Notes: a model not told the origin generated them from the letters alone. 64,000 bases of DNA from Psammoneis japonica (GCA_008632985.1 QPGO01000036.1:458182-522181); one strand, 5' to 3'; positions 5,001-47,579 are shown, counted from the stretch's first letter. Numbers and translations are program-made.

Positions 5001-5884
5001 CTTTGTGCACTTTTTTGCACTCACATGGTCATGGCTGCACTCACAATGCCATTTGTGTCTCCATGTGGTGCTCATGTCAACAGAAGAGATCTCTGGAAAA
5101 ATCATGAGAATGTTGTTCACTGAGCTGTGCAACAGGAAGAGCAAACGCAATGCTGTTGCAGCTCAAGGGCAAAGCAAGCAGCCATGACCCACACCCAAAC
5201 TTGCTGGCTCAAGCAGTGACATCTCAAGCAGTGCAGCACCTCCCAACTGCTGGCCAATGGTCAGCTGCTCTCTGGAGAGGCAACGGGTGGCATTGCATCT
5301 TCCTGGGACTGGAGTTTGTTCTTCTGCTTGCATGGCACCACACCACAGCCAGAGAGAGAGAGGAGGTGGGATCCTTGCTCACAACCAACAAAGCTCTCTC
5401 CCACTCTGCTGTGTTTTGTGGGGATGGCATTGCAAAATGTCCATTGTCAAATGGTTTCTGTCCATGCATGGCACATTGTTTGCTGTGGGGCTTTTTAGTT
5501 TTGTCATGACAACACCGGGTCTTAAAGGGAACAGCATGGCCCCTTGGTGGGAATGACTCTTTGTGACCAAAACTTGGCACATCACAAAAGTGAACAACAA
5601 CTGGAGCTCCAAAACTGTGTGAACCCACTTGCTGGCTTGAACCCAAGCATGACTTCAAAACAAGGGCACAAGGCTCATTGCAGACATTGCTCACTCAACA
5701 CATTTCCCGCAAAGCTGAAAGAAAATCTTTGGTGTGTTGGTGCACCATGTGCATCACTGCTCTCCTGCATTCCGTCATTGTCTGCTTCATCTTCATTGCA
5801 TTCACAGCAACGGGTGATGCACACCTTCTCCATCATGACAATGCTGAGGAGAACCAACAAATCATCGTGAAGCTCATGTGGGAA

Positions 5885-6037
5885 AAGAACAGTGCCGACC
5901 CTCTTCCCAGGTGCAGCAGATTGTGCCTGTCAGACAAAGACTGCCAAGGAGCCCTTGTCTGTTTCAAGTGCAAGCATTTCAGCAAAGTTCCTGGATGCCA
6001 AGGAAAAGGAAAGATGAGTGTTGGATGCTGCATTTGA
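5885..6037 (+). pseudogene. Decayed frustulin-type acidic cysteine-rich (acr-like) domain
   Basis: PLPRCSRLCLSDKDCQGALVCFKCKHFSKVPGCQGKGKMSVGCC follows the diatom pattern LgxCxGDCDxDxDCxxxLxCFqRxxxxxVPGCxGxGxxxxDYC. Confidence 0.6.
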
Positions 6038-8519
6038 CAAGGAGATGCTGTCACAAAGTCACTCAAGTGCATTTGAAAGAATCAATTCAGAGATCAAAGA
6101 TGAGGATTGTTGTGCACTCAAATGTCAGACAGGAGCAACGTTTGGTGATGCAGATGTGAAGAGGATGAGCAAATTGCTGCAAGTCTGAAAGATTTGCTGA
6201 AGTGCTGACAGAGGTGTCTGTCTGCCTTTCTTCTGATGGCTCTCTGTTCCACTGGGTTTCATGCTGTGCTGCCAGGGTGAAAACGTGTTTCCCAAGGAAG
6301 CGCACCTTTGATCATGGTTGATGGGTGATTTGTTTGCCCAACATGTGACAGGCATCTTCACCACAGAGAAGACAGAAGCTCCAGACTGAATGTCAAAATG
6401 TGACATGTCAGTCACCAAAAGTGTCTTCTCATCATGCACTGCTTCATCCCATCTGGTCAACCAACTCAGCTCCAGTTTGAATGCTTTGTCAGTGTTGTCA
6501 GTGTTCCCACTCTGCAGTTCATGTGAAAACAGAGTCAGCATCACATGAGTGACATGAGTGCAACCCTCCACCTGGGGGTGGCAGTCACTGTGCAGACTGC
6601 AGCACAATGACTGCCTCTGGCACTGAACTTGTCTCCCCATGTGTGACTCTTGTCAGTGGAGAACTTGGGCTGACATGTGACAACCACAAACTTGGCAATG
6701 AAGACCAAGTGATTCCATCCCATCCTGCACAGAAGAGACAAACTGTGGTGGTTGATCTGCAGTCGAAGTCTCATCCAGCTTCGTGCAAAATGACTGGCTG
6801 AGAGCACTCTAATGCTGACATGTGCTTGGGGTGCTTGGCCAGGCAGATGCAGCCCATTGACCCATGTCAATGCCGTCATGTGGTTGACGAGTGACTGACC
6901 CAAAAATCTTTTGTTCTTCAACTGCTGTGGCCCCTTGAGCTGAAGCATTCCCATGATCCAATGTGGTGGTGATGAGCATGAAAAGGTGCTTCCACCATGG
7001 GCACCATGTGGACAATGCATTCCGCTGGACAGGGACGGTGCATGTTTTGGGGAAATGTCTGGCAGGCTGATGAGTTGTGTGGCCTGAAAACATTCATCAT
7101 TGCCTTGCCCCACTGGTTCTCAAAGCTGTTCTTGCCCACATGTTGAAAGTGTTGCAAGGTTGTCAGGTTTTTGGTGGCATCCTTGAAAAGTGATGCAAGG
7201 TTGCAAAAAAGATGATTTTTGTCCAGGTTGCCAAAAGACTCAATCTCCAAATTGCAGATTGTGGTTGTGACCCATGGTTTGTGTGGCTTGACAATGATGT
7301 CATTGCCCGCCATTGTCGTCCATCATTGGCTGAGACATCATTTGGCAGCAGCATTGGAGAGAACGGGTGGCAACTGTGCTTTTCATTGCAACTGCCCTGA
7401 CCCCATGCACTGTGCCAGCACAATGAGCATCACCATGTTGAGTGCAACAACAAGCACCTCATTGGATCTTCTCTCAAGAACAAGCACATTGCATTGCTGT
7501 GTGTGTCAAAAGATGAAGTGGTCCAAAGGTTGAGCACTCCAGCAGTGCTCACAGCACAAAATTGTGCAATGCTGTTCATGATGTTGTTGAACAAAGCATC
7601 TCAGTGCACACACAAGCAAGATTGCAAGTTGATTGCACAGCTTTGCAAGCAAAAAGAGGAAGGGAATGCACAAAAGAAGTGCACACTGTTGGCACAAGCA
7701 GCCTTCATGACAGCACCTGGAAGAGTGGAAGCAACCACCAGTGCACAGAGTCATGGGCATCAAGCCTTGACTCACAAGCAAGAACAAGAGGTGCACATCA
7801 TGCTGGCTTCATTGTGTGCGTGTGTCTCCCCCCTGACCTGCCTCCATGACCAGCCAGAGACAGATGGGTGGTGAGACAAAGTTGGGATTTGGGGCTGATC
7901 ACTTTCAAAACAACTGAATTTGCAAGTGGTCTTTGCACACAAAATGGCATCCAATGACTTTCAAAGGCTTCAGGGTTGACATTTGAGGGAGGTGGTGGTT
8001 GTCCCCACTTCTTTCACTTGCACTTTGCTCCAAAAAGCTTGCAACTGCCATTGTGCAGCATTTCAGATTGGCACCTCAGGCATCATCCATGCCAAGCTTG
8101 CCACAAGCACACACACCAGGCCCACGTGTCTCTTGTTGTCAACTGGGGGCTTCACTGTGTTCCACATTGGCCAATGTAAAAATTCCTGTCATCAGCATGC
8201 TGGCACCAATGAAGAAGGTCTGGCCTTGAAACAAGTCTCTGGGAGAACAAGGCTGTGTGGCACTGGCAACCTGCGCACACCAATCTTGTCTTGCGTGCCT
8301 CTTCTCTCTCTCATGGAGCTGGCCAGTGACCTTTGTTGTGCAACAAGCTGTTGTTGTCAGGCAAGGTTGGCACTGGCTGCTGTTCTCTGATTTCTTTTTG
8401 CACCAAATTCTTTTGAGTCCTTGCAAATCCACTTTTCTCAACAATCTGTCCTTGCTTGCAAGCCTTTGATTCAAATTGCGAGTCTTGTCACTGCTCAAGA
8501 AACCCACAACAGAACAGCA

Positions 8520-9740
8520 TCATTGTCACATGGAGTGAAGCAATGATCAAGAGATTGGGAATTTGGGCACCATCGCCAAGGGTTTCATTGCTGTGATTGC
8601 AACAGAGCTTGAAGAAGACATTCTTGTTGATGTCAAAACAGAACTTCAAAGCACCTTTGGAGCCCTTGCCAAAACTCGATTGCATTCTTTCCTTTGCATG
8701 CTGCGCTGCCGATGTCAACTCACCAGGCCCCAGTTGCTCCCCATTGACCAAACACACTCAAATCAAGAATGGCAGGCATCTGCTGCAAGAGCTCATGGCA
8801 GAAGCGGATGGTGGATTCATTCAGATTGATGCAAGCATGGACACAGATCACAGTCATGTCAACATCACAGCCAGATCCAACTTCAGTGGCAAGAGTTGCT
8901 GCACACTCATCAGGTTGGAATGCTTGTGCACACAGCACATGTTGGATGCTGTCTTCCCTGTGATGCTGCTGGGATTTTCATGATGGATCAAATTTTAACC
9001 TGTGTCAGTGCTGAAACTCGCTCTGTGCCCCAGAGCAGCTTTCAGCTTGATCTGATGCAGGCAGCTTCCATTGTTTGTGGGAGCCCCCCATCGTCACTTG
9101 TGCTCATTGAGGAATTTGGAAAACGAGCACACGGACTCTCTGGAGTGCTGCTGGCTGTTCAACACTCATTCATCTTGTTTTGCTGGCATGCTTGCACCAC
9201 TGAAGGCACCAGCCCGTCATTTGGTGTTGCTGTTTTGTCAGCGGAAAGCAAAGAAGCTTTCTCGCATGAAATGCAAAGTCATTTGCATGACCCATTTCCT
9301 GGAAGTCTTCAGCTTGGGATTGCTTTCGGATGGTGCAGATGGAGGTTGTGCACGCCAATGATGGTGCACATTCCAGAGTCAAAGAGCAAGGATGAAGAAG
9401 AAAACTTTGGTGCAGCGCCCTTGTTCAAACCAGAGCAGGGTGTTGCCAAGTCGTTGGCAGGGCTTGTGTGTGCCAAGAGAGCTGGCGCGCAAACAAGAAA
9501 GTCCCAAATGGAGGAAAGGGAATCCTTGTTGCTGCCAAAGAAGATGGGTGCACCATGCAACTGCTCAAAGAAAGCATGAGTCTCCCAGAGCTAAAGCCAG
9601 AGGTGAAGGACGTCTTGTGCATGTTTCTGGGAGTCAACTCATTGGCAAATGCCACAGATGAACAGCTCAAGGTGCTGGGGTGTAAACTGGCTGCTGTTTC
9701 CATCCTGCAGCAGGGGCGCTGCAGTTGGGGGCAGCTTGCA
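8520..9740 (+). pseudogene. MSH5: MutS homolog 5 (MSH5) pseudogene, ATPase half, multiple frameshifts
   Basis: Across frames: LDCILSFACCAAD, IKNGRHLLQEL, Walker A remnant NFSGKSCC, QVGMLVHTAHVGCCLPCDAA, SVPQSSFQLDL, SLVLIEEFGK..GTSP, CMTHFLEVF, PLFKPEQGVAKS.AGLVCAKRAG. Confidence 0.85.
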
Positions 9741-12700
9741 CAGACAACAAAGAGACAAGACATGTGGGGTGATCAATCCAAGCATTTCTGCTTTTTCTTT
9801 TTTTTGGCACTTCTTGTGTTTCTTGCCTTCAGTCCTTCATTTCTTGGGCAGGAGTTTTGATGCAAGGGAAAGTGTGTTTTGCAGCAAAGGGACCAGGCAA
9901 AGCTGGCAGATGAAAATGATGTGGCCTGGCATTGCAATTGCAGAGGCATCTCTGTCCTTCCAAGGTGATCCTTTTGCACACAGCATCAAGCACAAAATGG
10001 TCTTGGAACTCTCTCAATGGCACACCAAGTGATGATGCAGACTTGCACTGCAAATTGAAAAGTGGCTGATGCTTCCACCAATGATGACATTCTGTTGCTT
10101 TGGTTCAGTGCCTGGAGCAGACAACAGATGATGCACAGCTTGTGGATTGATCGCTGCAACACACAACACACAAAAGTGCCATGTGCAAGGAGCACAAGCT
10201 TCAACACCACAGAGGGCAAGAAAAGCTGGCACTCCAACAAATGTTGGGAAAGGAAGTGGGTGCTGTTGCAGCCGCGCATGCTGGAGAATGCTGGAGAATG
10301 AAAGAAAGAAGAAAACTGGGGTGCAAGCCAATGGAACCACACCTTGGCAATTGTGTGTCTGTGACAAGATGATTGGATTTCATGAACACATGCATTCGTG
10401 CACAACTTTGGCCCATGCATTGCCGCCGCAGTGACACTCTCCAGTGCATCTTTCTGCAGCACCATGCAAGAGCCAATGTGGTGACACCATGAGCCCATGA
10501 CACCACAAGCCCAATGGCAAACACAGAATTCCCCACAAGCAGAGCTGCAAAGTGCATGCAGGTGGCGACAAGCATTTGACTTGAGTGGCAGTCTTGTCTC
10601 CTGCGTGAACGTTGTCTTGATGTGGATGGCGGGTGCAAAACGACAGCTGCTTGCTTGCCTCCTCTTTGCTCTTGTTTTCATTTTTGATGTTTTTTCAGGA
10701 TTTCCACACACACACCAATGCTTCCTTTTTCGAATTTTTGCAAGATCTCATTGTCCCTTTTGTCTCAAGTGAGGACCATGACAAAAGACATCAGATTGCT
10801 TGGCCACTCTGCCAGATTCTTTTGCAAGCTGCTTGCTTTTTCCATGAGGCATGTCCACCCATTTGTTTTTGTTGTGGATTTGCCACGCAGAGAGTTCATT
10901 GGCTGTAAGAGCCAATCACAGAAACAACTGCTCCTCCATTAATGCACCTCCGCATGAGCAGAAGGACTGCACTGCCAGCATGTGGGTGCACAGCTTGAAG
11001 CTGTCCAGCACCCAAAGACGTGCCTGATGTGCACAGGATTGGAGTGTGCAAAATTTTTGGTCATGATTTGGCGGGACTTGTGGGCATGAATCGAGTCCGC
11101 CAACTTGTGTGATGCCCGCGAGCCCCGCCCACTCAGCCGACTTGTGACACAAATGGTGTGCAGGCTGTGGGCAAGATTTTTTGTTTCAAAATGCATTGTG
11201 CATTGTTTGTGCAGTGGAGGAGTGTTGCAATCACCCTCAAGACATTGAGCGGGCTCTCAGTGCCAATGGCAAGATAAAGACAGTGCAAAAATGGCCTGTC
11301 ACAACCCTGGATGACAATCTGCCCTTGTTGCCACCCGGTGAAGAAGGGTTCTGGACATGCAATCCAGCGTGCTTTCCTTGTCCCTTTTCACTTTCATTTC
11401 ATGTCATGCCTCCAGACAATGCCCATGAAATGTGGCCACAATCAAACATCCAAGACTTCTCAACAGCAAGATCTGTTTCTTGCAAGCCAAACCAATGCAC
11501 TGGCAAGATTTGCCAATGCTTTCTGAACAAGGGTTTTCACATTTCAGTGCTGACCTGCACCTCTCTTGCATTGTCAGCTTGATGGTCAACTTGCACCCAG
11601 CAAACAGCTGCTGGCTTCATGCATGTCTTTGCTTTTGTGACAAAGTGTCGTGTGTCAACATCACAGAGTGAAGCCAAGAGAAGCTCAATGGCATGCTGTG
11701 AGAATCAACAATGGCTGCACGCTCTTGCTGCAGTCATGCAAGGACTCGATGCAGCAACTGACTGATTGCAGCTCTGAGCAGATGATGAAGGATGCCAATC
11801 TCAGCCTTTGATTTGATTTGTTCACAAACCACAGAAATGTGAACTGTCCTGCTGCTTTGCAGAGGTTTCATGTGAATTGGCAAATCTCATTGTCATCAAA
11901 CTTGAACTGATCCAGAATGGCAGATTCAAAATTGCGCTCTTCGAGAGTCTGCTGACGTTGCAACTTTCAATGCACTCAATCCTCTGGTCGAGGAGTGAGC
12001 AGGGTGTCTTCATTGAATGCCCATGTTGGAGTTGTTTTGGCAGCTGCCAATTGACTCATGAGGGCTTGTGTTCTGCATCAAGCTTGCACAGACATGCCTG
12101 TGAAATCTCCTGATGTGTTCAATGCCGTTGTCTGCACAATTGTTGTCAGCCATCCCTTGGCTTGAGTGTCAACTTTAAAGACATGTTGCATGCTTTTTCA
12201 AAAGAACAACAAGATTCAATGAGATGTCTTCTGCCCTGGAACGTGCCCTCAAAATCACCAAAGCTTGAGCATGTCAGGAACAATCAACTTGCTTGATCAG
12301 CTGTGTCAGCATCCATCCAATTTGAAGCGGCTGAGTCAGGCTCTGTGTTCAAAAGATCATCCTTTGCCACAGCTTGGGCAGTTGGCCAACCAATGCTTCA
12401 GATTGCAAAGGGGAAAACGCAGCTTGCAGATTCAATCTTGGACAAAAGAAGTCACTCAACAAATCATCAGGCAGAAGGAGTGTTGCACAAACATGGTGCA
12501 CTGGAAGCAGATGCCTGCCACTGAAGGAGGAACTTCCCATGTGGAAAAACTTTCTTTGCTTCACAACAAGTGCACACACTGCCTCAAGAATCTGTTGCGC
12601 TTCCTTTTCCTCTTCTATAAAGACTTCCTGACCTTCACATCCTGTGGCAACTGCAGGATGTTTGTCGGCAGTTGGTGGATGTTGCTTGCACCTGACTCAA

Positions 12701-13129
12701 AGCAGTCTGGGATGGCAGTGCTTGCTGGTTGCTCCAAGCAGCTGTGGCGTGCATTGGCGCTGAATCTCAGATGACCTGTTGTTGCTCATTTTCTTTTCCT
12801 TTTTCTTTTGCTTCTGCTGCTCTTGTCCAAATGACACTGCGTTGAGTTTGCACCACACAGCATTGTTGCCTCATTCACCACCAGCATGTTGAAGAACAGA
12901 GATGGCAACTGAGGTGCAAGCCTGCAGTGGTGGACTTGAATTCATTGGCCATTGCAACATCATGCAATGGTCAACATGCAGACAAAAAAGACTCACACCC
13001 AGATGTGGTGTGAGCAGCAAAACAGCTGGGGGGTGCTTTTGGGCTTGTCAGGAGCTGTGCGGAAAGAGAGTCTGCCAACACAGAAGCAGACAGACATTTC
13101 AAAATGCAGCAATTGTGCTGTGGGAAGTT

Positions 13130-13560
13130 GAAACTCAGAATTCTGCTGTGCATGGAGTGCCTTGGGAGGGTTCTTGCTTTGCACAGGTTGCGCGCATCAT
13201 CGATCAGTGATGGCACTGTCATGGAGTGCATGTGAACAAGTGGACACTGTCTTGTCACAGGAGGTGGAGACGGCAAGGTTCATGCTTTTTTGCTGACAGA
13301 TCTTGTCGACTTCTTGGAAACTCCAGATGGGACGACGATTGCCCCACTTCGCACCTGGTTGCATCACCACTTGTGGCAACTGCGCTCAAGGTGTTGCCCG
13401 GGGACAGAATGGCAACAGCCTCAGATGACTGCAAGGTTTCAATCATTGAACTCTTTTCAGATGCAGCAGCTTTGACTGTTCAAATGACACACTCATTGCG
13501 TTTGTTAGAACACCCGGCTGGTCGCCAGTTTGCCAGTGCGGGTCAAGGAAGCATGTGCAC
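13130..13560 (+). pseudogene. Decayed WD40-repeat gene fragment
   Basis: VATALKVLPGDRMATASDDCKVSII resembles a WD40 blade; only one convincing repeat. Confidence 0.4.
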
Positions 13561-14614
13561 AATTATCTTGAGGTTTGCGCAGTGCATCAATCATCACAGA
13601 TGGGCATCATTGTGAAACAACCAAGTGTTGACAAAACAAACGAGGACCAGGTTTTCAGGAATGACAACAACTCACGTGTCAACAGCGCAAATCAGAGCTG
13701 CACGGACATGGCAGATTGACAACACCAATCAAGAGGTGTTGCGTTTGGCTGCAGGCGGAACTTGACGAAGCCAATCAGGGTGGAAAAAAGTCAACAACAA
13801 GCTTGTGCCAAAGTTGAACAAAGAGTCTTCTTGTGGCAACAATGCACCACAAAAATGAAAATTGTTCAATTGTGATCAGAGTGCAGACTGCTTCTGCAGA
13901 CCCTTCGAGACATCTTGCGGAGGTTTGATCCCTTGTTTTGCAAACCATTGCACACTTTTTTGGACATGATCAAGTTGCAACTCCACTTGAAATTGAGGAT
14001 GCAATGGCAAAAAGGTTCAACTTGGTTCCCACTTTGCACGAGAGTGCTTTCCACATGTTGACAAATTCAGCCAGCAGTCAGGGACACAACAACATGCATC
14101 AAATGTGGAGATCCAGGTCAGTTAGAAAAAGACTGACATCAGCTTGATCCTGATTGGAAGAAGAGAGGCAAAGCAATTGTCCATGGAGGAAAACCCTGTT
14201 TGTTGAAGACTCACCGTGAAATCAAGAACCCTCTGTTGATCTCCACACTCATGCACGTCCTCATCAGCCATTGACACTCAGGTCTCAAGTGTGGCATGGT
14301 CAAGCAAAGTAAAGTGGCAGCACAATGTTGAACACTTGTTGTTGGACTTCGAACCGCAGATGGCATCACCAATCCAGCAAAGGCAAATGACAAAGCAGGG
14401 TGCAGTGACAAAAGAAGAATTGCCACCACCACTCTCTGGTCCAAGCATCTTTGATTGTTTTGCTTTTTGAATGCAACAGGATGTCCCAGTCCCAGTTCAT
14501 CATGTCAAGGACCACTGCAGGCACCAAACTAATTAGATTGAAACAGTCGTGCAAGTCTCTGTGAAAGTCAGTGCCCTGATTGGGAACGCCGGGAAGCACT
14601 GGAATGCACGCAAA

Positions 14615-16133: not shown

Positions 16134-16823
16134 TCACATGGTCTGCTCGTAAGCGCGATCGACAGCCATGCAGTCATGGATCAACCAGCAGTTCTGGCGA
16201 GGAGGTCTCCGTTCTCGTTGAAGCGTCCATAGAAAGGTCCGTTCCTTTCCTTTTAGCGGAATAACGTGAACCAAGCAGGTTTGCATAGCTCCGCGGGTAC
16301 GAGTCCCAGGAATGAGCTTTCCCATTTTCTTAATCTTCCAGTAGTGACAATCCACCATGCCACCAAAGACGGGGCCGGTGGCTTTCTTGATAAAGGTCTC
16401 AAGGTCCGATCCTAAACCGGCGCGGCAGAGGTCCGTAGCAAAGTTATAGCAAACCTCGATTCCGGCATTGTTGAATATCTCGTTGTTCCGTTGCAGACCA
16501 TTCATACACATGGTCACGACCTCTTTGGCCTCGTACTCGGAGTGTGGGCTTGGAATGTACTCTTCGTCGATACCCAGGGTTGTTGTTATGGGAATCTGAC
16601 TTACAGATAGAGACGTTGAGGACTTTGTACTAGTTCCAATGCCGTTGGAGTGAGAAATCGGAGGAGCAGTCGTGATTGGGAGAGACCCAAAAGTACGGGT
16701 CGTCACAAAGGCACTCGACGACGACACTGCAAGCGTCAGTAGAAGGAGAGACCGCAAGAGGGGCGGCAGAAGGACATGGTAATAAAAAAGAAGTAATCTT
16801 GATGGGCAGATGGCAACAGCCAA
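16134..16823 (-). CDS. Conserved plastid-targeted protein of unknown function (possibly DUF4864-like)
   Basis: Signal peptide ending SSSSAF, S/T-rich transit peptide, globular domain (EVVTMCMNGLQRN..NAGIEVCYNF..RTFLWTLQRERRPPRQNCWLIH). Normal dinucleotide content. The true ATG start is not evident. Confidence 0.75.
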   Translation of the reverse strand: MAVAICPSRLLLFYYHVLLPPLLRSLLLLTLAVSSSSAFVTTRTFGSLPITTAPPISHSNGIGTSTKSSTSLSVSQIPITTTLGIDEEYIPSPHSEYEAKEVVTMCMNGLQRNNEIFNNAGIEVCYNFATDLCRAGLGSDLETFIKKATGPVFGGMVDCHYWKIKKMGKLIPGTRTRGAMQTCLVHVIPLKGKERTFLWTLQRERRPPRQNCWLIHDCMAVDRAYEQTM

Positions 16824-17109
16824 TGACTCAAAAAGTGCTCGTTGCTCGTGATGTTTTGCGTGATGGGTGATGGAATGAGAATTTTGTGTCTCGGCGGCAT
16901 TGGTTTGCGCGCAGATGTCAAAATTCCAAAATCTGTCGTTGACGTCAGCAATACTGAGACGGACTATGTAGAATCTACGTGAGCAAATTCGGTTGGCCAG
17001 ATGCGGTCGCGAATTTGTCTAAATGTTGGAATCAGTAGAAATCTACAGGAAGTTATGTACGATGACGTCATCTATTTTTGATCGCGATTTTCATGCTGCA
17101 AAACAACCG

Positions 17110-17240
17110 TGGCTATTCGCCACCAACGCTGCTGGGGGGTGCGTCCCACTATAGTTAGGAGGCGGTGATTGGTGGTGTCAGCGCTTTACTGGGGTTTCTT
17201 GCCCTCTTTAGGCTCACCAGCAACCAAGACCGCCTCCGAT
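17110..17240 (-). repeat. Split direct repeat B2 (outer copy, TpA retained)
   Basis: 131 bp, matches 17402-17532 with 5 differences. Confidence 0.95.
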
Positions 17241-17264
17241 GAGGCGGCTGGGCGGGAGAGGAGG

Positions 17265-17397
17265 GTCAAAAAGTTTGCAACTGCTGCTGCGGCCTCGGCA
17301 GGCGGCGACGAGTTGCAAAGAATGCCGTTGGCATTCAGGTCGTTCAAGGCTGCGTGCGTTGGGGGGTGGATGCGTCTGTCCTTCCCCCTGCGCTGCT
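17265..17397 (-). repeat. Split direct repeat A2 (inner copy, TpA lost)
   Basis: 133 bp, matches 23346-23478 with 6 differences. Confidence 0.95.
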
Positions 17398-17401
17398 GGG
17401 A

Positions 17402-17532
17402 TGGCTGTTCGCCACCAACGCTGCTGGGGGGTGCGTCCCACTGTAGTTGGGAGGCGGTGATTGGTGGTGTCAGCGCTTTGCTGGGGTTTCTTGCCCTCTT
17501 TGGGCTCACCAGCAACCAAGACCGCCTCCGAT
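17402..17532 (-). repeat. Split direct repeat B1 (inner copy, TpA mostly lost)
   Basis: Matches 17110-17240. Confidence 0.95.
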
Positions 17533-17611
17533 CCGCCACTCTTGGAGGGCCGAGAAGGAAAAAGGGGATGGGTCAGAAGCAGAGCTGAGGGTGGGTGAAG
17601 GCGTGGATGCG

Positions 17612-18800
17612 TCAGTTGGCGGGTGCGTCGGCTTGATTGATGATGTTTTGCGCAATGGGAGGGACATGGGACCCTGGGAGTAGCGTGAAATTGCCGCAGT
17701 TCAGGATTTTCGTAGACAGTCCTGCCATTGATGGTGATGCTTGGGCGTGAAGACATCGAAACACAGCATCGGATTTCCAGCGGCCGACGAGACGGATGAT
17801 GTCGGTGTCTGCTTTTGCGCACAGCAGGGCCATGGTGCCACCGGTGCGGAGGCTGCGGGCTGTGACATCTTTCGGCAGGAATCCCACATGTGGCAAGGCG
17901 GCAGCTGACACTTGGAGCATTTTGGTGATGGCACGGCTCGTGACATGACCCCACCGCGCACCGAGGCGTGCAGCACACAGGGGGGTGTTAGCGTTGGCGC
18001 CGTTGGAACGTGGGTGATGTACACGGCGGGCGATGGCGAGGACCGGGCATGCCTTGGAGTGCGAGCTTCTAGCATGACCTGCCGTTTCGCCGCATTCTTG
18101 ATTCTTTTGAGTGTCAAACGCAATGCCACTGTGTGTCGCGAGGAACAGCTGTTGCAGGGGGCAGGTCAAGTGGTCTAGTGCGCGTTGTCCGACGAGCAGT
18201 TTGATGTCTTTTAAGACCAAAGGGTCATTGTCTTTGCTCTTGCAATGCTCCCCCGGTCGCAGAAGGTAGAAAAGGCCGATCCAGGACATGTCGATGACAG
18301 CGTTGTCGAGGGCGGAAGATTCATCGACAAGGGCTTGTGCGTGGTGTACGATTTGGATCGGAAGAGGCTTGACGCGGTTCGGCGGCGGATCGTCTTTGGA
18401 GCACGCACTGTAAAGGCGAGCAAGGCGGGGATCCACAGTGCCGTGTGGCGTTAGCCGCGGGTCCGGGGCCCCCAGCTCGGTGAACGTCTTCGCGACGTGA
18501 AGGACTTCGTCACGAACGTGCGGAGCTGAGATTGGGTTGCCGCTGCGGCTGAGGCGTCCATCCCCAAGGCGACAGGCAAAGACTCGGAGCATCGGGATTT
18601 TGTCTTGGACACCGGTGAGGAGAGGGTCTTCGACTCCGATGTCGGATGGGAAAGGCAACCAACACTTGGCCCAGACGGTGTCCGTGGCACGGGCGCGCTC
18701 GCCAGTGACAGCTTCGCGGGCTTTTGCCGTCGCAAGGCGGAGATCAGTGAAGAAACGATGTCTGGCGGCGGGTGCAGCATTTGCCAAGGTTTCGTCTGTG
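17612..18800 (-). pseudogene. Tyrosine recombinase of the Ngaro element; catalytic Tyr replaced by Cys
   Basis: FYLLRPGEHC, ARSLRTGG, IIRLVGRWKSDAVFRCLH (expected RYLH); overlaps the RT ORF in another frame; start approximate. Confidence 0.88.
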
Positions 18801-20769
18801 GGGCAAGGCGAGCAAGCGTGGCAAGAAGGTGAGACGGCGTGGAAAATTTTCGGGAGCACGTGTCTGCGAGGAGATTGGCTGGGCCAGGAATGTAATGGAA
18901 GCGGGAGACGTGTCGGAGCTGCCATTGTTGTAGGCTCCCCGTCCGCAGCACATCGGCGCCGGGGCCGTCGGTTGTGACAGAGCCTTTTCCGCGCCGGGAA
19001 ATGGCAGGCGTGTTGTCGCAGCACGTGTGGACGGTGCGTTCCCTGACGTCGACGGCGATGCCGATGACGGCCTCTTGCAGCACTGTGCCGGCTAGCTCGA
19101 GGTCGGAGTTTGTTGTGGTTCCTGTGGGGTTGTCGTCCGAAACGACAGCGGCTTGCAGGTCTAGAGGCAGCGGAACTTGCCAGGCGGCAGGAGGGAAGTC
19201 GTCTTGAGGGCCAGGCAATGGGACGCCGCCAAACCCAGGTTTTGCTGCATCGCACGCCCCGTGGAAGTGCCCATCGGCAGCAGGGAAAAGTTCAGCCAGC
19301 CGAGTAGGACGTGAGGCAATGTCCACGGCCAAGGTGTGCAAATCTTGGAGCTGGCGGCGTGCATGGCGGCCAATGCGAGTGTGGGAATTGCCAGAGGTGG
19401 CAAGAGAGTGCTGGAGGTTTGAGAGAAGGCCCGCACCACCGGATGCCGCTAACAACATGCTGCGGACTTCGCCGAGAAGTTTGCAGCATTGTTTGTTGGA
19501 CATGCGGCGGCGAGGGATGGTGTCGGCCAGAATGTCAAGGAGGCGTTGTCGACGATGCGGCGGCAACTCGATGGTCCCGGCAAGTGTGTCTGTGAGCCAC
19601 CCCAAAATGACCTTCACTGTCGACCACGACGCGTCTCCTTTGAGAAGTTTCTTTGGGGAGATGGTTTCACGCCGCCAGTGCTCGTCAGACGGTGTGTTAG
19701 GACGGAAGACTTGATCGTTGATGTGCAAGAGGCGTCGACGTAGCTTGTTGAGACGAGCCTTCGTTCCTTGTGCGGCGCACATTTCATCATCGACGTAGAC
19801 ATCGAAGTGTTCCAGTGGCTGAGAGCCCCGTCGGGGTCTGCGACGGAGAGCGGCGGGAGGAGGAAGGCGTGATGTGCGGCTGGTCGGAGCTGCACTGGAA
19901 GGCGGCGGCACGTCGATGCGCAAGGTGTTGTCGTGAGGCGCTGGAGTGGCCGCTGCCTGTTCCAGGGGATGAACCGGAGGGTCCCAAGCTGTGGGCGAGC
20001 AGCTGTTCGCTAAGTCAATCACCATCTCGGTGCCCACACAAAAGAATGGCGGACTCTCGGTCCAGCCCATGGGCAGGACGAGAGGCAGCGCTGTCAGCGG
20101 TTCCTCCCCTGGGCCTGCTGGGAAGGCCACCCCGAGCTTGGGTGTGTCCTGGGGTCGCAGCCCAACGCGACAGAACCCATTGGAAAGGTCAAGCTTGAGC
20201 ATGTGTGCCGGGCCGTGCTTCGGGTCCGCACGGAAGATGTTGTACAAGAACCGGTCGAGAGCTCGACCGAATTGCATGGCTTCTGGAGGGGCGTGCTTAA
20301 CAGTCTCGTCGTTGAGACCGCAATGGCTGTAATCAACGATGGTGCACGGGCGGCGGTCGCGTTGCGGCACCACGCCCATCGGTGAGACACGCAGGTGGGG
20401 GAGCTTGCAGGCTTCGCGGTGCGGCAGGACTGTCCAGTGTCGTTTCTGGATCATGTCCGCCACATCCGATTCGAGGAAGCCCAGACACTCGTGAGTGGAT
20501 GGATGGCTCCCGCGGTCGGTCGCCATCCGGACCCGGTGAGGGGACCAGTCTTCCGTTGAAAACTGGACCGGTGCTCCGTCGTCACGGAGTTTAGAAAGTA
20601 ACTCGGCAGCTGGGTGGGGCAGCTGCCGAACATTCTCGGCCAGACACGGCTCCCTGCGCAGGTGTGCAACGAACTGGCTCCAGCCTAAAGTTTGTAAGAG
20701 TTTGACATGGTCCTCTGCTAACTTGCCTAGTTCGTTGCTGCGTGGACACTGCTGGTGCGGATCTGGCAA
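18451..20769 (-). CDS. Reverse transcriptase / RNase H of the Ngaro element (open but heavily substituted)
   Basis: LRVSPMGVVPQRDRRPCTIVDYS, KLDLSNGFCRV, LPMGWTESPPFFC, VYVDD, CDAAKPGFGG, NSDLELAG, CDNTPA, YIPGPANLLADTCSR. Confidence 0.9.
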   Translation of the reverse strand: MPDPHQQCPRSNELGKLAEDHVKLLQTLGWSQFVAHLRREPCLAENVRQLPHPAAELLSKLRDDGAPVQFSTEDWSPHRVRMATDRGSHPSTHECLGFLESDVADMIQKRHWTVLPHREACKLPHLRVSPMGVVPQRDRRPCTIVDYSHCGLNDETVKHAPPEAMQFGRALDRFLYNIFRADPKHGPAHMLKLDLSNGFCRVGLRPQDTPKLGVAFPAGPGEEPLTALPLVLPMGWTESPPFFCVGTEMVIDLANSCSPTAWDPPVHPLEQAAATPAPHDNTLRIDVPPPSSAAPTSRTSRLPPPAALRRRPRRGSQPLEHFDVYVDDEMCAAQGTKARLNKLRRRLLHINDQVFRPNTPSDEHWRRETISPKKLLKGDASWSTVKVILGWLTDTLAGTIELPPHRRQRLLDILADTIPRRRMSNKQCCKLLGEVRSMLLAASGGAGLLSNLQHSLATSGNSHTRIGRHARRQLQDLHTLAVDIASRPTRLAELFPAADGHFHGACDAAKPGFGGVPLPGPQDDFPPAAWQVPLPLDLQAAVVSDDNPTGTTTNSDLELAGTVLQEAVIGIAVDVRERTVHTCCDNTPAISRRGKGSVTTDGPGADVLRTGSLQQWQLRHVSRFHYIPGPANLLADTCSRKFSTPSHLLATLARLAPQTKPWQMLHPPPDIVSSLISALRRQKPAKLSLASAPVPRTPSGPSVGCLSHPTSESKTLSSPVSKTKSRCSESLPVALGMDASAAAATQSQLRTFVTKSFTSRRRSPSWGPRTRG

Positions 20770-20820
20770 GTGGGCAGAGGAGGGCTGCAGGCCAGCTTTA
20801 GGGCTGACCGGCCCCCGTCC

Positions 20821-23312
20821 TCAGGTGGAGGCCGCCGGTGCCGGCGCGGGTGCCGGAGCTGGGGCGCCACCTTCTTGGGGATTGGACACGTGGTCCCGGA
20901 TGAACGCGCTCATGGCCGTCCTCTCTCGTGGTGAGAGGTTCCGGTGCATGTTGCTGCGCTCACAGTTGGCAAAGCACGCTCCTTTCAGGTGATGGGAAAG
21001 GCACACTTCACACGCGGTGCCACTTGAATCCGTGGTTCGGGGTGCGAAACGTCGGACTGTAGCCAGGCGGATCCCGGCTTGTGCAAAGGCCGTCAGCCAG
21101 GACCGCACCGGGTTGGGATTCGTGACGGCCGCGCCCGGGTCGCGACGTCCCCGCAGTGGCGGCTGCCGCGGAAGGGGTGCCACTGTTGCTGGCGCTGGTC
21201 GAGCTCGCCTGGGAATTGGTTGTCTGCTCTGGTTGGCCAAGCAAATGGCGTGGCAACTGTGCCAGCAAGGAGAATTGTCCGTGCAGCACCTTGCATGCCA
21301 CAGCAGTGTAGTCGGGCACCCGGGGCACACCACCTTGCGTGAGCCTGCGCAGGTAGACTCCCATGAGCATCTGCACCTTGCGACAGATGCGGGGAAGTAC
21401 GTTCCCCTCAGCCAGGAGTGCTCCCGATTGTTCGAGCAGGTCGACCATGTCTCGCCAATCTTCCAAGCAGAACTGCCGGAACGCCACAGCATGGGGGTGA
21501 TTCGATCCTTGGATGACGTCCAATGCCAGACTGGTGGCTTGAAGCATGCTTCCGCAATGGCAAGTGGACGTGGGAAGAGGTGTGTCCTTGGTGCGGAACT
21601 CCTCCTGTTCCGCAACGGCAGGCATCAAGTTGCCGGCCAACGCGAGGTCGCAGCGTTCGGCCCGGACTTGCACAGTGGAGCCTTGTCCAGCCAAAAAGAA
21701 GCCGCACGTGAATGGGGAGACGCCGGCGGTCAAATCGTTCACTTGGTGCACGTGAGGTGCTGCCTTCCCTTGCAACACCATCTCGCACAACTCCTTGGAG
21801 ACTGTGGGCACTGTGCGGGACGCCGCGTCAGGCTCTTGAGCGCGCGCTTCCAAGGCGCGAGCAAAACACAGGCGCCGCTCGGCTTTGGCACTGTTGGCCC
21901 AGGCGTGGTACAGCGCGGGCAAAGCCGCATCGTCCGGTGCGCTCGAAAGCAACAGCCACACGGGCGCAGTCTGCGGGAAGGCTTCCGTCGGAGTTTTGGG
22001 GGCGGCGGCTGCGGCCGCGGCTGCGGAACGTGTTGCTTCTGTGCGTGCTGCATCGGCGCGGACTGTGTTGGCAAAAGCCAGGACCCGGTCGGTGTTGTCT
22101 GCGGCCGTTGCATCCAGGGCGGGAAGGTCCTGTAACAACGTGCGCCAGCGATGCTCCTGTGGACGGGCGTCCACCGCGAGTGGTGGCAAGGCAGTGGCAC
22201 GATCACCCATGCACTGAACCGGATCTGGATTCGCCGCTGTGTTGGTGGTGAGTGCCGCACGCAACCAATCGATGAGGGGACTCAAGTCCCCCGCGCGTCC
22301 GTCGTTTTTGGATTGCTCCCGCGAGTTCCCGCCAGGCCTGCAGAGGAGTGAGATCCCGGCTCAGCACGAGATGCAGACAGGCATGGGGCACCTGCATGAG
22401 TCGGCGGACGTAGATCGTGTCGGTGTCCGGGGCGCCATCGGTCTGCGGAGGTGTTAAATCCTCTTCATCAACCAGAGTGCCTTCTAGGGCGGCCATGTTG
22501 GCCACCGCAGGTGCCACTTGTGGACCCACGGTTTCAAACGGAGTGTTGGGCAACTTGAGGATGGACGCGTTCCAGCCCTGGGTGGGACTCCGTGTGACAT
22601 TGGGCCCGTAGAATTCCACGTGCGAGCTCCGTAGTACGAGAATTTAATCAATGGATACATTCATCTTCAACATCAAATAAACGGCCAAGTTTGTGGTGCA
22701 ATTATGCCTCTCACCACTCGACGTTTTTGCAATTGCACCTGCCCTGCGCGATTCTTAAGACAGTGTAGAATCGTGCTGTAACAAAAAATGTCAAAAGTTT
22801 TTGGACGGATCGCTCAACAAGTGCACCGTAAAATGACACAAAATGTCAAAAAATCACGTAGAATTCTACGTGCGCGACATACGACGAGATTCAAAAAACT
22901 GTCGATGTCACAGTTCAGCAGTGCGAGGTCCCACCTAGACCTGGAACACGTCGATGGTAATGAAGTTATCCGGTGGCACGTCTCCTTGAAAACAGAACAC
23001 ACGACCGTCCCACGGCGAGGTCTCCACCGGGTCTCTTATGTGCACCGAGGGCCGGTGGACGCAGGTGGTCCGGCACCCCGTGCCTTGGCGCACTGGCACC
23101 AAAAAGGCCTTGGGTGCCACGTCGCTCGAGTCGATGGTGTGCTCGAGTAGCGTAGCAGCCGGCTCGGGAGCAGCGACGGTGGTGTCGTATCGACGGAATA
23201 AATTCGCGTGCTCCCCTCCCAAGTGATCGCCTTGGGTCATCCACTTGTCGTGGTGTGTTTTTGGGGGTGCCGGGGGCGCTCCACCGGCGGCCACAGGAGG
23301 GATGGCAGCCAT
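20821..23312 (-). pseudogene. Gag-like ORF of the Ngaro element, frameshifted and interrupted by a MITE
   Basis: MAAIPPVAAGG... start; pieces in several frames; C-terminal CLSHHLKGACFANCERSNMH zinc finger; removing the MITE restores FITI-LKLP in frame. Confidence 0.78.
22564..22952. mobile_element. 389-bp MITE, copy 1, nested in Ngaro gag; 4-bp TSD GATG
   Basis: Imperfect TIRs GACG(C/T)GTTCCAG..GGTGGGAC; GATG at 22560-22563 and 22953-22956; homologous to 52001-52389. Confidence 0.9.
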
Positions 23313-23345
23313 CAAGAGATAAGGTTGGCGTATGTCGCTCCCTTT

Positions 23346-23478
23346 GTCAAAAAGTTTACAACTACTACTACGGCCTCGGTAGGCGGCGACGAGTTGCAAA
23401 GAATGCCATTGGCATTCAGGTCGTTCAAGGCTGCGTGCGTTGGGGGGTGGATGCGTCTGTCCTTCCCCCTGCGCTGCT
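23346..23478 (-). repeat. Split direct repeat A1 (outer copy, TpA retained)
   Basis: Matches 17265-17397. Confidence 0.95.
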
Positions 23479-23675
23479 AAAATTACAGTATTGGTCCGTC
23501 GTCCATCCGACCATCCGTCGCGAGTCTTGGAACTTCAACTTGCCGCCAACCGCACATCACACGCGTCACATTATCATCACACCATGATGGTATGAGAACG
23601 CGAAGGCAAGCAAGCACCCTGCCATCGATTGTCAACCCTGAAATCCTTCTCAGCAGCAACAACAATAGCATCATC

Positions 23676-24403
23676 ATGATTATGCGCAGAGCGTGCTACC
23701 TACTGTTATTGCTTAGTCCAACCACAGCGTTTGTGAATGGCCGCTCTTCCACGACGACACGCGCAACGTCCGCAACGTTCTTATCATCTACAAGCACAGA
23801 AACAACCGACGAATTGTTGAAACCAAAGTACGAAATTGACCACTGGCAACACGAATTGGTCATGGCTTTGATATTCATCGAATGGCGCCTCTCGAAGAAG
23901 CTGGACAGCCCGTTGTGATTGGTGGTGTCGTGATTGATCACAAGAACCAGAAATGGACGGATGTAAAAGGAAAGTACGTGGAAAAGGGGGGTATTTACGA
24001 GACACAATTGGGTGTTGTCGCTCATTCGGATGGAGATGTTATTTACCATTCGGTCGTTGATGCAATTTTTGGAGCACTCACGTTACCGGATATTGGACAA
24101 GTCTTTCAAGACTCGGATCCGCGATGGAAGGGGTGTGATTCTTCCAAATTCATGACTCATGCCTACGATACCATGACGTCCTATGGATATCAAATTGGCA
24201 ATATCGATGTCACGCTCATTCTGGAGCGCCCAAAGGTGGCAGGATTCAAACCAGCCATGAAGGAGAATATCATTAACTTGTTGCACACCACACCGGGACG
24301 AGTCAACATCAAGGCACGCACGCATGAACAAATGGACAGCGTGGGAGAGTTGCGATCTCTCAGTTGTCACGTCGTATTGACACTAGAACGAATCAAGGAC
24401 TAA
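23676..24403 (+). CDS. ispF: 2-C-methyl-D-erythritol 2,4-cyclodiphosphate synthase, plastid-targeted; apparent 1-nt frameshift at about 23840
   Basis: Signal peptide ...LSPTTAF; RIGHGFDIH, AHSDGDVIYHSVVDAIFGALTLPDIG, GNIDVTLILERPK, VNIKARTHE. Confidence 0.93.
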
Positions 24404-24600
24404 GGCACGTGTGGTAGAGATTTGTTGTTGTACGTTTCATGTGTGAGTGTGGTAATAAGTGTTGTAGCTGCTACGAGGAACTTCTAGGTCGTGGACGCGT
24501 AAGGTTACTCGTGTGTAGAGAGAATTGTTACTGTACATCTTGGATAATCGTAGCTCATGTCTGACTTTGGTATTGAATTTGTAGCTGAGCGAGGATTTTT

Positions 24601-25794: not shown

Positions 25795-26599
25795 TCTTCA
25801 TATTCTTCTTGTACCAAAATACAAATAGGGACCAGTGTAAGTCGAACTAATTCACATTACGGTTTGATGGAACGGGCTGTAGCGTCATCGTCCATCATTG
25901 TCGCCGCCGCCCGAAGAAAGGGAGAAGAAAACGACTAGGGCCCTACTCTACTCTAGTCTCTAGGGCCCTACTGAGCGAGCTTTTATCACTTTTGAATTTT
26001 GGCGATGCTGCAGGCCGCTTTCCGTCCCAGCTTCGTGGTGCCACGTGTAATAATTAACCCCCCGTTTTTAACCAAATACCCACCTCGATCGACTAACAGT
26101 ATGCAGATACGGAGTTCAGCACAATTTTGGGGGCCTAGAATGGGGGTGAACGTTAGTTACTAACCAATTGACTCTCGCACTTGCCCGTGTAATAAAGGTG
26201 CTCCACGAAAAGTTAGTTCCATTTTCAAATACCCGACACCATGAACAATACATACTTATTACATTCTCGCAAGACATCGATTTAAAGAGTATGACACCGA
26301 TAATGCTCATATCTTGTGTATTTTGTGGCTCTAGCGGGGGTCAAAGTCTAGCTGATTCTTCCAAAAACTTCGAGTCGAGCGGGTCATACGGGATTCAAGA
26401 CACGTGACTCACTGTACAATTCTTGAGCCTTTCTCCTTTCTGGACACCGAGATTAGATGATGACATCAACACAAGACCTATTTCATGGCTATGTTCTATT
26501 GTCTAATCCATGGCTAGCCTCCTGACAACTATATTTGACCTCTTTCATGCTATAAATTGGCAAAGCAATCCGTGAATGCTCACCTCAAGTCGCACTTTT

Positions 26600-27560
26600 C
26601 CATTTTGAGATTTGACGTTTTTGCAACTTTGCGATGAATCTAGAGTGGATGCGAACCAGGGAGGAGCTCCATTCACCACTCTTTATCATTCTATAGAATG
26701 GCAGCATCAGAACAACATTGTCAACATTGTTTGACTGTTTTTTTCTTGCGCCGTGCGCCAACTTCATTCTGCATTTTCGCTGCCATCCGCCTGGCTCTCC
26801 CCCCACTCAAGAACACTTGGCTGAATGCATTGCAGTTGCTTTGTGAAAGTCTTGTAAATGTTCGTCTGTTCAATGCCATTGATCAAATGGGACAGATGAC
26901 ATGACGAAGACGTTGGATTTGTTCATGTGCTCATGCTGGGAAAGACAACAAGAGTTGGCTGCGGCGGCAAGAAAGTTGAGTGAGACAACAAGTGGTGAGC
27001 CTTGGACATGTTGACAGCACAATTTTGATTTTAAATTTACTTGCCTTTTTAAAAACTCGGAATTTAACTCAGTGGGTGCTGAATGTCCGGCAAATGGTGA
27101 GTTGATGCGTCGTCTGCATGCAACACGGCATCAAGACAAAGCGAGACGGTGTGCTTTAATGTGTTTCTCGCCAAAATGAACATCTCAGAATGGACAATTG
27201 CAACTGTGTGTCAACAAGGGTCTGACAGAGCTTCTGTTGTGATGGTCCAAAAAACAACGAATGTTTAGACACCTCATCTGCCGTGTCAATGTCATCGTCG
27301 GCTCCGGCTCCGGCGGGTTTTTGACAAGTTCTCCGTGTTGCAGCAGTTGGCCACACATCAGTTGGGGTGTCTGTGGGGTTGGCAGTTGTTGTGGTGGGGA
27401 AACAGGTGGTGGAGGAGGCGCGCGTAGTGCGCTGGGAGAGGGAGAGAAAAAGGGTTGGCCAAGGGTGCGGACAGACGGTCGTGAGGAGGAGTTGGTGATG
27501 GTGGGATGGCGGAGGAGGAAAGCTTGACATGTAGAGAGATGGTTGGAGAGAGCAAAGCCT
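26600..27560. other. Small TpA-depleted island, unclassified repeat relic
   Basis: TpA sparse relative to flanks; low-complexity T/P-rich reading on the minus strand. Confidence 0.55.
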
Positions 27561-44300: not shown

Positions 44301-44760
44301 GAGTGAGAAGGGGCATGTTCAGGCACAAAGCTGCTCAAGAATGGAGCTGCTTCATTTGCAGCACCAATCAGATCAGAGGCAAGGGCAAGTGGAGACAATT
44401 GGCTTTTGGATGACTGGATGCCATGGGTTTCAGAAAAGCTCATGGTTTTGTCTGGTGATTTCCCCCATCCTTGAGGAGCCACTGACATTCCTCCTGCTCA
44501 ACCTCCTGCACCAGCAAACACTTTGTGCAATTTGATGACCAGAACATTGCACCCACACTGCTCATCTTGTCATGATCTTCCTTTGATGAGGCTCAAATCC
44601 CTTCCAAAGCAAGAGCAGAGAGAGCAGACCCAGCACTGAGTCCATCGAGAGTGTTGTTGGAGCGGTGACCTCTGTTGAGCCATTTGTCATCAACGTCCAT
44701 GTCTCTAGAATGCTGGGTGTTCTGTCAAGAAGAAGGCAGGGGGAGAAAACTGCTTGTAGC
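41370..44760. other. TpA/CpG-depleted block of decayed gene copies
   Basis: Near absence of TpA; TG/CA excess; abrupt return to normal at the COG6 3' end. Confidence 0.9.
41863..42260 (-). pseudogene. Soluble inorganic pyrophosphatase (family I) pseudogene, C-terminal half
   Basis: Manual translation: KVKVPGILCVIDAGECDWKVVIVDAKDK*TPFINDIQDV..GVLDAIHKWRHICKFPDEKPPSAFGLEE*FMDK (family pattern VKVLG....IDxGExDWK..YKxPDGKP). Confidence 0.85.
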
Positions 44761-44782
44761 ATGTCTTAAGCATTCTCTTCAT

Positions 44783-44856
44783 TTTCATTATACGTTTGTA
44801 TTTGCTTTATGCTCTTCAATTTCATTATACGTTTGTATTTGCTTTATGCTCTTCAA
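44783..44856. repeat. Perfect 37-bp tandem duplication in the COG6 3' flank
   Basis: tttcattatacgtttgtatttgctttatgctcttcaa x2. Confidence 0.9.
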
Positions 44857-44877
44857 TTGTTTTACTAATGTATATCT

Positions 44878-47106: not shown

Positions 47107-47579
47107 GGTCAACAAAATAATAAGCCGGTCATTTCTCAACATCGCGCGCACAACCAGCGAGATCCTCGCGCGCTGCGCCTGCTGCGGAGCCACAGAACGT
47201 GTGCAGCACAGTCAAGTTGTTGTCCAAGAAAAAGGGGCAGCCAGCACGCAGCAGTTGCCTTTGCTCTTTTGACAGCAGCTGGGCTGCGACAAAGTGTGTC
47301 CCCAGCTGCCACTGCTCTTTTCTATGACAAATGAGGGCAAGTGCCAGCAGCCACCAAAGATGCCAACACCCCCCAATGAGGAGCCTGTCCATCTGGGATG
47401 CCAATGATCTGGGTCTGACCGTCTGCCATGTTCTGGGTGTTTCTTGACTTTGATGCCAGATTTTTGTCAACTTGTGAGCCAATTCTCTCCTTAAATACAA
47501 TGTGAGAACCATGTAAGTTTATGAGCTTCTAAAACCTAAATCGCTTCTCACTTTTAAGTGTGGTCATTCCTTTCACATG

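Follow-up and report, generated by a model that had tools for sequence, protein, structure and literature searches.

TpA loss from the interior of a young Ngaro-type retrotransposon in the diatom Psammoneis japonica, and its two spared ends

In a stretch of 64,000 nucleotides from Psammoneis japonica (hereafter the window), a Ngaro-type tyrosine-recombinase retrotransposon at 17110-23482 (minus strand, 6373 bp) has lost TpA dinucleotides from its interior and kept them at both ends. The same two repeats stand at the ends and inside the element, and of the 12 TpA sites that they hold, all 12 are kept in the outer copies and only 1 of 12 in the inner copies (Fisher P = 9.6e-6). The sequence-only reading had proposed that the outer repeat copies keep their TpA although they are as repeated as the inner ones, that the loss starts about 150 bp inside the element at both ends, and that its targeting follows a chromatin or methylation domain and not repetitiveness. 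For this element the spared ends are confirmed and positional targeting is supported, whereas a chromatin limit is a candidate cause only; the interpretation as a whole is thus partly supported. As a whole, the best explanation is mutation in place of an internal domain limited by the edge of silenced chromatin, to which we assign a probability of about 0.4; the margin comes from one copy.

The element reads, on the minus strand that carries every long frame, A1-[gag, RT, YR]-B1-A2-spacer-B2, i.e., the outer 5' copy of repeat A (A1, 23346-23482), the inner copy of repeat B (B1, 17402-17532), the inner copy of repeat A (A2, 17265-17401), a spacer of 24 bp between A2 and B2 (17241-17264), and the outer 3' copy of repeat B (B2, 17110-17240). 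Repeat B is 131 bp and repeat A about 137-138 bp long. Such split direct repeats, A1-[ORFs]-B1-A2-B2, are the arrangement expected of a Ngaro: the defining layout is given as "A1-[ORFs]-B1A2B2" for an element of about 6 kb, GC-rich, in the stramenopile Cafeteria (PMC8547959), and PMC4157794 presents A2 and B2 as identical copies of A1 and B1. The element shares with the Ngaro of Cafeteria burkhardae (PMC8547959) its size of about 6 kb, its richness in GC, the order A1-[GAG, RT/RH, YR]-B1A2B2 and a stramenopile host; hypermutation was not found in the excerpted text of that paper. The GC content is 0.62 in the element and about 0.47 in its flanks (a stretch of 60-63% at 17-23 kb in a window of about 47%).

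Contigs of a public sequencing run of the same organism (X1) were aligned to 16500-24500, and one contig of 6049 nt joins 17109 directly to 23483 and thus represents the empty site. The two sides share only 1 ambiguous base at this joint, so that the element extends exactly from 17110 to 23482, its insertion is polymorphic, and it integrated without target-site duplication, as a Ngaro does. The retrotransposon is young: an empty allele exists, and the outer and inner repeats show no substitution beyond the 14 described below. Its family has many copies, because the summed contig depth in X1 is 400-1500 across the element compared to 59 in the flanks. A total of 4176 contigs of X1 fall on the locus (854 of them less than 90% alike), and the copies differ mainly by transitions (218-330 places per transition type, 29-65 per transversion type). 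No second copy of the family was found within the 64-kb window by blastn, by tblastn with 43 proteins, or by a transition-blind self-comparison in a purine/pyrimidine alphabet.

The coding frames are open and identifiable but clearly damaged. The reverse transcriptase (RT) frame (18451-20820, minus strand) has 614 homologues with E ≤ 1e-5, several of them with PF00078, and contains the YVDD motif, so the element encodes the reverse transcriptase expected of a Ngaro; the direct Pfam match of the frame is weak (E = 0.1) because the copy is mutated. The closest RT homologues are 57-58% identical (58% over part of the protein, in short fragments), no near-identical protein fragment that could represent a source copy was found above 58% identity, and the named matches of the RT family include the centric diatom Cyclostephanos. 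Invariant RT residues are changed (D214N, Y217C, R480H, R548Q and R633W). The recombinase (YR) frame (17612-19291, minus strand) gave no direct Pfam match, and clusters of look-alike eukaryotic proteins (score 0.97-0.98) carry PF00589 in 20-36% of their members, which is a lead and no more. The YR frame could be aligned with 60 homologous frames of metagenome loci, by which the element has a tyrosine recombinase instead of a DDE integrase; the catalytic tyrosine is invariant in these frames and a cysteine here (Y513C, at 17754). The middle and C-terminal parts of gag (21008-22565, minus strand) were recovered as two frames (22203-22577 and 21008-22360) by local alignment to related gag sequences, and the partly mutated N-terminus (22967-23312, minus strand) begins with a start codon at 23312, just inside A1. 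No Pfam domain was detected in any frame of this degraded copy; a methyltransferase would separate DIRS1/PAT from Ngaro.

The direction of change was determined with homologous proteins; those for gag and YR came from related elements of 78 metagenome loci, which are collapsed, mostly intact consensus contigs without flanks and thus permit no test of the margin. CA or TG was changed back to TA, and we asked whether the codon then gives the residue of the homologues. In the RT frame, TA-type reversions improved the match at 15 of 209 sites and CpG-type reversions at 17 of 229, compared to 9 of 837 for the controls (eight transition contexts) and 0 of 23 for the reverse change. The corresponding counts for the YR frame were 13/115, 6/121, 13/409 and 0/13, and for gag 5/27, 1/35, 2/127 and 0/7 (N-terminus), 3/33, 2/45, 2/140 and 0/4 (middle) and 6/115, 1/148, 5/445 and 0/10 (C-terminal part). 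The inferred TA-type losses thus number 15 in RT, 13 in YR and 14 in gag, with those of the gag N-terminus (TA>CA) at 23255, 23210, 23116, 23095 and 23042. Since TA reversions restore conserved residues, and invariant residues are mutated, TA was lost and the copy is dead; conserved tyrosines became histidine or cysteine in the element proteins. A change from TA to TG or CA cannot, by the genetic code, create a stop codon, which is why the frames remain open. In 69 of the 78 related loci TA o/e is 0.50-0.74 at a GC content of 0.48-0.63, compared to a TA o/e of 0.23 in the interior here; high GC is native to the family, and the TA deficit is not. Among 225 aligned RT relatives the locus copy ranks first in the share of Tyr>His/Cys changes (5/8), a comparison over only 8 columns that is uninformative on other genomes.

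The pair of repeats alone cannot polarize their differences, and one might suppose that the outer copies gained TpA by a RIP-like change of CpA to TpA and that the inner copies are ancestral. The protein reversion tests already contradict such a gain, as changing TA to CA or TG never improved the match (RT 0/23, YR 0/13, gag 0/21), so that loss is confirmed as the direction; furthermore, TA is depleted, not enriched, across the repeat blocks of the window, and the outer copies have the same TA share as unique DNA. We give this possibility almost no weight.

Both strands were affected. Among 52 labelled sites, 33 were T>C and 19 A>G on the sense strand, and the two kinds do not cluster along the element (25 runs, 25.1 expected). 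By region, T>C : A>G was 9:6 in RT, 5:8 in YR, 10:4 in gag and 9:1 in the repeats (the repeat count omits a tenth T>C site, at the junction of A). Gradients and spared ends are known from edited retroviral cDNA, and the changes here resemble APOBEC3G or ADAR editing in being transitions of the deaminase type with a neighbor preference (5' U/T for adenosine deaminases). However, those enzymes mark one strand, whereas both are hit here (33 vs 19), and the logic of the repeats points to a time after integration; the hits on both strands argue against one round of editing of a single-stranded RNA or cDNA before integration (APOBEC/ADAR type), which we reject.

Of 269 aligned positions, 14 differ between the outer and the inner copies of the repeats. 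In 11 of the 14, TA in the outer copy faces TG (10) or CA (1) in the inner copy; two are further differences of A (outer) against G (inner), outside TpA, and one is CA (outer) against CG (inner). All 6 TpA sites are kept in B2 and all 6 in A1, compared to none of 6 in A2 and 1 of 6 in B1. The two A/G differences outside TpA lie in the last four bases of repeat A, which read AAAA in the outer copy (23479-23482) and GGGA in the inner one (17398-17401); of these three consecutive A/G differences only the first stands in a TpA, and a strictly TpA-bound process does not explain the others.

The same contrast is seen in the TA share, computed per region as TA/(TA+TG+CA). It is 0.22-0.23 in the unique flanks, 0.23 in B2 plus the spacer and 0.25 in A1, and it falls to 0.02 in A2 plus B1 and to 0.046 in the element interior; the region 22966-23345 has an intermediate share of 0.13. 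The two ends are the most TA-rich stretches of the element. Among interior windows of 155 bp, none of 5526 is as high as B2 (0.23), although 0.33% contain at least 6 TA, and none of 5544 interior windows of 137 bp reaches the A1 values, so that the spared ends are not a chance patch. A single interior patch, at 20566-20800, keeps several TpA (7 in about 210 bp) and may be locally protected. The outer copies are repeated too (summed depth 886-1556 in the left repeats, 977 in A1 and 59 in unique DNA), as had been claimed. Within this one copy, therefore, the same repeat sequence met a different fate by its position, and neither repetitiveness nor sequence decides; the claim that targeting is positional and not driven by repeats holds to this extent, through the contrast of outer and inner repeats.

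The loss begins at similar distances from the two ends. Going inward from the left (3') end, kept TA sites extend to 17209, 100 bp in, and a lost site is first met at 17277, 168 bp in. From the right (5') end, they extend to 23320 (163 bp in), and loss is first inferred at 23255 (228 bp in), where the change Y20H replaces a tyrosine present in 8 of 8 homologues. The two intervals, 100-168 bp and 163-228 bp, overlap at about 165 bp, and the proposed "about 150 bp at both ends" is thus a fair description. A changepoint fit to the dinucleotides alone (log-likelihood +14 units) placed the left limit at 17166-17282 and the right limit anywhere within 22395-23313, the latter being narrowed by the protein evidence. 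The 3' side is stepwise, with 0 of 6 sites lost in B2 and then 6 of 6 in A2. On the 5' side the change is gradual: no site of the 6 in A1 is lost, and the next 350-380 bp (22966-23345) combine 5 inferred losses with 8 kept TA, which counts against the explanation that we favor.

The position of both limits is also what would be seen if the target of in-place mutation were the transcription unit of the element, by RNA guidance or by coupling to transcription. A1 would lie at or upstream of the start site and B2 beyond the 3' end of the RNA, while nascent RNA would extend over A2 and B1. The A2/spacer/B2 border falls within the left limit (17209-17277), and the right limit starts 26-91 nt inward of A1's inner edge, shortly beyond the gag start codon (23312). 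In the related element DIRS-1, most of the left terminal repeat and nearly all of the right one are missing from the transcript, and the cDNA is single-stranded (PMC7192593), an analogy that would leave the spared parts outside the RNA. For the chlorarachniophyte Bigelowiella natans, the authors of a preprint on a similar hypermutation suggest guidance by an RNA intermediate, although the hypermutated insert is described there as transcriptionally silent (bioRxiv 10.64898/2026.01.13.699255). Where TA loss reaches its left limit, at the spacer/B2 border (17233-17250, minus strand), a hairpin with an 8-bp stem is reminiscent of the 3' hairpin by which reverse transcription of DIRS-1 has been proposed to be primed; it folds no better than shuffled sequences (z = -1.17), which speaks against an RNA-defined border. 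The element's transcript as target fits equally well to the spared ends as a chromatin edge, and we consider it a serious if rather improbable alternative. A further analogy, confined to a target defined by the transcript, is somatic hypermutation by AID. In immunoglobulin genes, the AID-mutated domain starts about a hundred bases inside the start point and includes both strands, but AID targets cytosine, depends on transcription and acts in vertebrate B cells.

CpG-type changes follow the margin less clearly. The only one among the repeats is a CpG>CpA at 23408 in the spared outer A1, and decay of CpG, presumably of methylated sites, is therefore not obviously excluded from the margin (a single site). 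This change and the non-TpA A/G pair count against the best explanation, i.e., an internal domain bounded by chromatin. In the left flank (16500-17109), the empty allele of X1 has CG at two places where the filled allele has TG (16967) and CA (16818), 143 and 292 bp from the insertion; these could represent CpG decay spreading outward from the element, in a comparison of only 6 substitutions in 610 bp with unproven polarity.

That the changes came after insertion is suggested by the logic of the repeats, on a replication model tested in DIRS-1 and not in Ngaro. DIRS-1 restores its ends from an internal region of the same element that has to be present in cis, and its RT acts in trans (PMC7192593). 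If Ngaro elements replicate like DIRS-1, the repeats would have been identical at insertion, and their differences would have arisen afterwards in place. The 22 interior places at which every X1 contig differs from the locus copy support in-place change; contigs, however, show presence and not absence, and can miss rare copies.

Alternatively, the copy may have been dead on arrival: an already hypermutated element would have been mobilized in trans and its ends rebuilt from an unmutated helper template, in which case the ends are clean because they were newly made and not because they were spared. The insertion is indeed polymorphic yet heavily mutated, with RT and YR inactivated, the RT of DIRS-1 can act in trans (PMC7192593), and the AAAA/GGGA and CA/CG differences would be simple polymorphisms between helper and source. 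Against it, the end-rebuilding region of DIRS-1 is needed in cis, and the ends should accordingly copy the element's own inner repeats (PMC7192593); the 22 interior places without a matching X1 contig reveal no source copy, within the limit that contigs show presence only, and the 5' side has a partial zone and not a clean switch point. We regard mobilization of a dead copy as unlikely.

An assembly or polishing artifact is another way in which clean ends could arise, if only the last read-length on each side was anchored in unique DNA and the interior was built from reads of older copies. The margin of about 150 bp is near the length of short reads, and many diverged family copies exist (4176 contigs, 854 of them less than 90% alike). 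The 64-kb window, however, crosses several repeats and a miniature inverted-repeat element (MITE) with a depth of more than 1e5, which implies long reads; the interior contains letters found in no X1 contig and is thus not a family consensus, and the 5' side is graded and not a step. Such an artifact appears quite unlikely.

The MITE mentioned above (22566-22965, no strand assigned, 400 bp, with terminal inverted repeats) is nested in the element, where it interrupts gag; other Ngaro copies lack it, with 22565 joined to 22966. It is not TA-depleted (TA share 0.20), and its summed depth in X1 is 1.0-1.8e5 compared to 59. A second copy lies in reverse orientation at 52001-52391; the two are about 390 bp long with terminal inverted repeats of about 25 bp, and they are 80% alike and near-identical over the last ~130 bp, a part in which each keeps its TA and CG. 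Mutation is far lighter in these two copies than in the DNA around them, and the one at 52001-52391 lies deep in an old depleted block. Position in a domain alone is therefore insufficient, and timing, by episodic activity or by later insertion of the MITEs, is needed in addition. Three TA are kept just left of the MITE junction (22400-22565). A search of 22400-23600 against Rfam returned nothing above chance.

Repeat-induced point mutation (RIP) changes CpA to TpA (a gain of AT), depends on duplication, and covers the whole duplicated tract. The process in the diatom is like RIP of Neurospora and other fungi in being a fast, dinucleotide-specific transition mutagenesis that kills transposons in place. 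It is unlike RIP in that TpA is destroyed (a gain of GC), as the sequence-only reading had held, and in that identical repeat copies are treated differently by position: C-to-T changes at CpA that make TpA are supported at no site in RT (0/23), YR (0/13) or gag (0/21), TA o/e is 0.23, and the outer repeat copies are untouched where a whole duplicated tract would have been covered. A recognition that depends on homology pairing as in RIP, but weakens near the ends of the paired tract, would nevertheless let the 400-bp MITE and the terminal 150 bp escape, in agreement with the MITE being spared in both places and with the three TA that survive left of its junction. RIP, however, not only covers the whole duplication but leaks outward, and the N-terminal piece of gag, in a terminal part of 516 bp isolated by the MITE (22967-23482), is mutated all the same. 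The target of the comparable process in B. natans is moreover single copy (bioRxiv 10.64898/2026.01.13.699255), and we judge pairing-dependent recognition to be very unlikely. Genes of the RID-related DNMT4 type occur in many diatoms, although not in Phaeodactylum, with no function assigned (PMC9998398).

The element lies between two genes. To its right is IspF (MEcPP synthase; 23676-24403, plus strand; Pfam YgbB, E = 2.2e-49), the likely start codon of which is 194 bp from the right end of the element, a distance compatible with the proposed role of nearby active unique DNA, and to its left an open frame with normal TA content to which no family was assigned (16134-17018, minus strand). Farther along the window, an intact COG6 gene (44700-47200, likely start codon near 47106), closest to those of raphid pennate diatoms (46-50% identity to named matches), is hemmed by depleted blocks.

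These blocks (2501-14500, 41501-44500, parts of 47001-54500, and 57501-64000) have a TA o/e of 0-0.1, a CG o/e that is often 0.04-0.5, and TG and CA of about 1.7-2.1 with TG ~ CA, values that look like those of a complete conversion of TA and CG to TG/CA. The nearly complete absence of TpA or CpG from the repeat blocks of the window suggests that the process runs to completion in diatoms. The blocks vary in CpG loss while their TA is already gone, and the locus Ngaro has lost about two thirds of its TA at a CpG o/e of 0.94; since TA is mostly lost and CpG kept in this young element, TA loss is the fast step. The oldest block (2501-14500) has 0-2 TA per 500 bp throughout, without spared islands, and the depleted blocks on either side of COG6 have sharp edges, about 95 bp ahead of its start codon and about 150 bp after its stop; no margin is thus visible in old blocks, where, however, element ends cannot be placed.

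No repeats other than the MITE copy at 52001-52391 were found within the depleted blocks by comparison in the purine/pyrimidine alphabet within the window, and a Pfam search of 41 + 71 of their frames yielded only one MutS_V fragment. This degraded MutS domain V (8830-9576, plus strand, in the 12-kb block; Pfam E = 9.4e-11) has its best solved match in bacterial MutS/Msh2 and shows visible changes of the Tyr>His and Arg>Cys type; its origin may be a pseudogene of the host or an integrated giant virus. The region 26501-27500 shows an intermediate loss (TA o/e 0.22-0.29, CpG 0.59-0.79) and may be another partly mutated insert.

The closest known process is that of B. natans, in which transitions only at TpA, to TpG or CpA, arose de novo in mutation-accumulation lines at a rate of about 6e-7 per site per generation (Mettrop et al., bioRxiv 10.64898/2026.01.13.699255). 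According to that preprint, two inserts are hit, one from a giant virus, which is single copy and transcriptionally silent, and one from a virophage; hypermutation appears in some of the lines only, and an ADAT2-like deaminase is proposed as the enzyme. As in B. natans, TpA is changed to TpG or CpA on either strand (11 of the 14 repeat differences and the reversions in RT, YR and gag), the change is confined to foreign or selfish DNA, TpA is depleted in the long term with a gain of CpA and TpG, and activity is apparently episodic. Unlike B. natans, the host is a diatom and not a chlorarachniophyte, the target is a retrotransposon, and the changes are not almost exclusively at TpA: CpG transitions are equally enriched in RT (17/229, TA-type 15/209), the two A/G differences lie outside TpA, and the old blocks are nearly without TpA and CpG. 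Decay of 5mC, as a process of its own, may account for the CpG part. New mutations were measured in B. natans, whereas the process here is inferred from one sequence, and a spared margin of nucleosome size is not described in the text of the preprint (the stem "boundar" occurs 0 times in it). Provided that the change occurred in place, the process is aimed neither by sequence nor by copy number, in line with the target in B. natans being single copy. No report of TpA-directed hypermutation in a diatom was found in literature searches.

The history that we favor for the locus would be as follows. A Ngaro-type retrotransposon inserted between two genes, with outer and inner repeats that were presumably identical at that time. 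After insertion, a process of the diatom would have turned TpA into TpG or CpA on either strand, alongside decay of CpG to TpG or CpA. It would act on an internal domain and stop ~100-170 bp before the 3' end and 160-230 bp before the 5' end, so that position, and not sequence or copy number, would decide. The limit would most likely be the edge of a patch of silenced chromatin, the last nucleosome-sized stretch on each side behaving like the neighboring promoter DNA. The analysis shows the anatomy of the element, in which direction TA changed, that both strands were involved and that the margins were spared, whereas the timing after insertion and the role of chromatin are inferred; a chromatin edge is in keeping with margins of similar size at two ends of different structure and with the position of the element between two genes.

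TpA-directed hypermutation of foreign DNA was described only in 2026 and in one alga, and the same signature is now seen on a young diatom retrotransposon. The base process is a diatom instance of this recently described kind, and the spared margin is a new, testable detail, from one copy. Each end sequence is present twice in the element and serves as an internal control, by which, if the change arose in place, position and not sequence or copy number decides. Should the margin recur genome-wide, the aiming mechanism would be narrowed to chromatin or nascent RNA, and the simple comparison of outer and inner repeats would be usable on any assembly. It is conceivable, although we hold it doubtful at present, that a fast TpA-destroying defense is common to diatoms and chlorarachniophytes, that chromatin position sets its footprint so that a new insert is mutated from within, and that an active neighbor protects exactly one terminal nucleosome on each side of the insert. 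If this terminal-nucleosome reading is true, the split direct repeats of Ngaro elements would be natural paired reporters for mutagenesis that is aimed at a domain.
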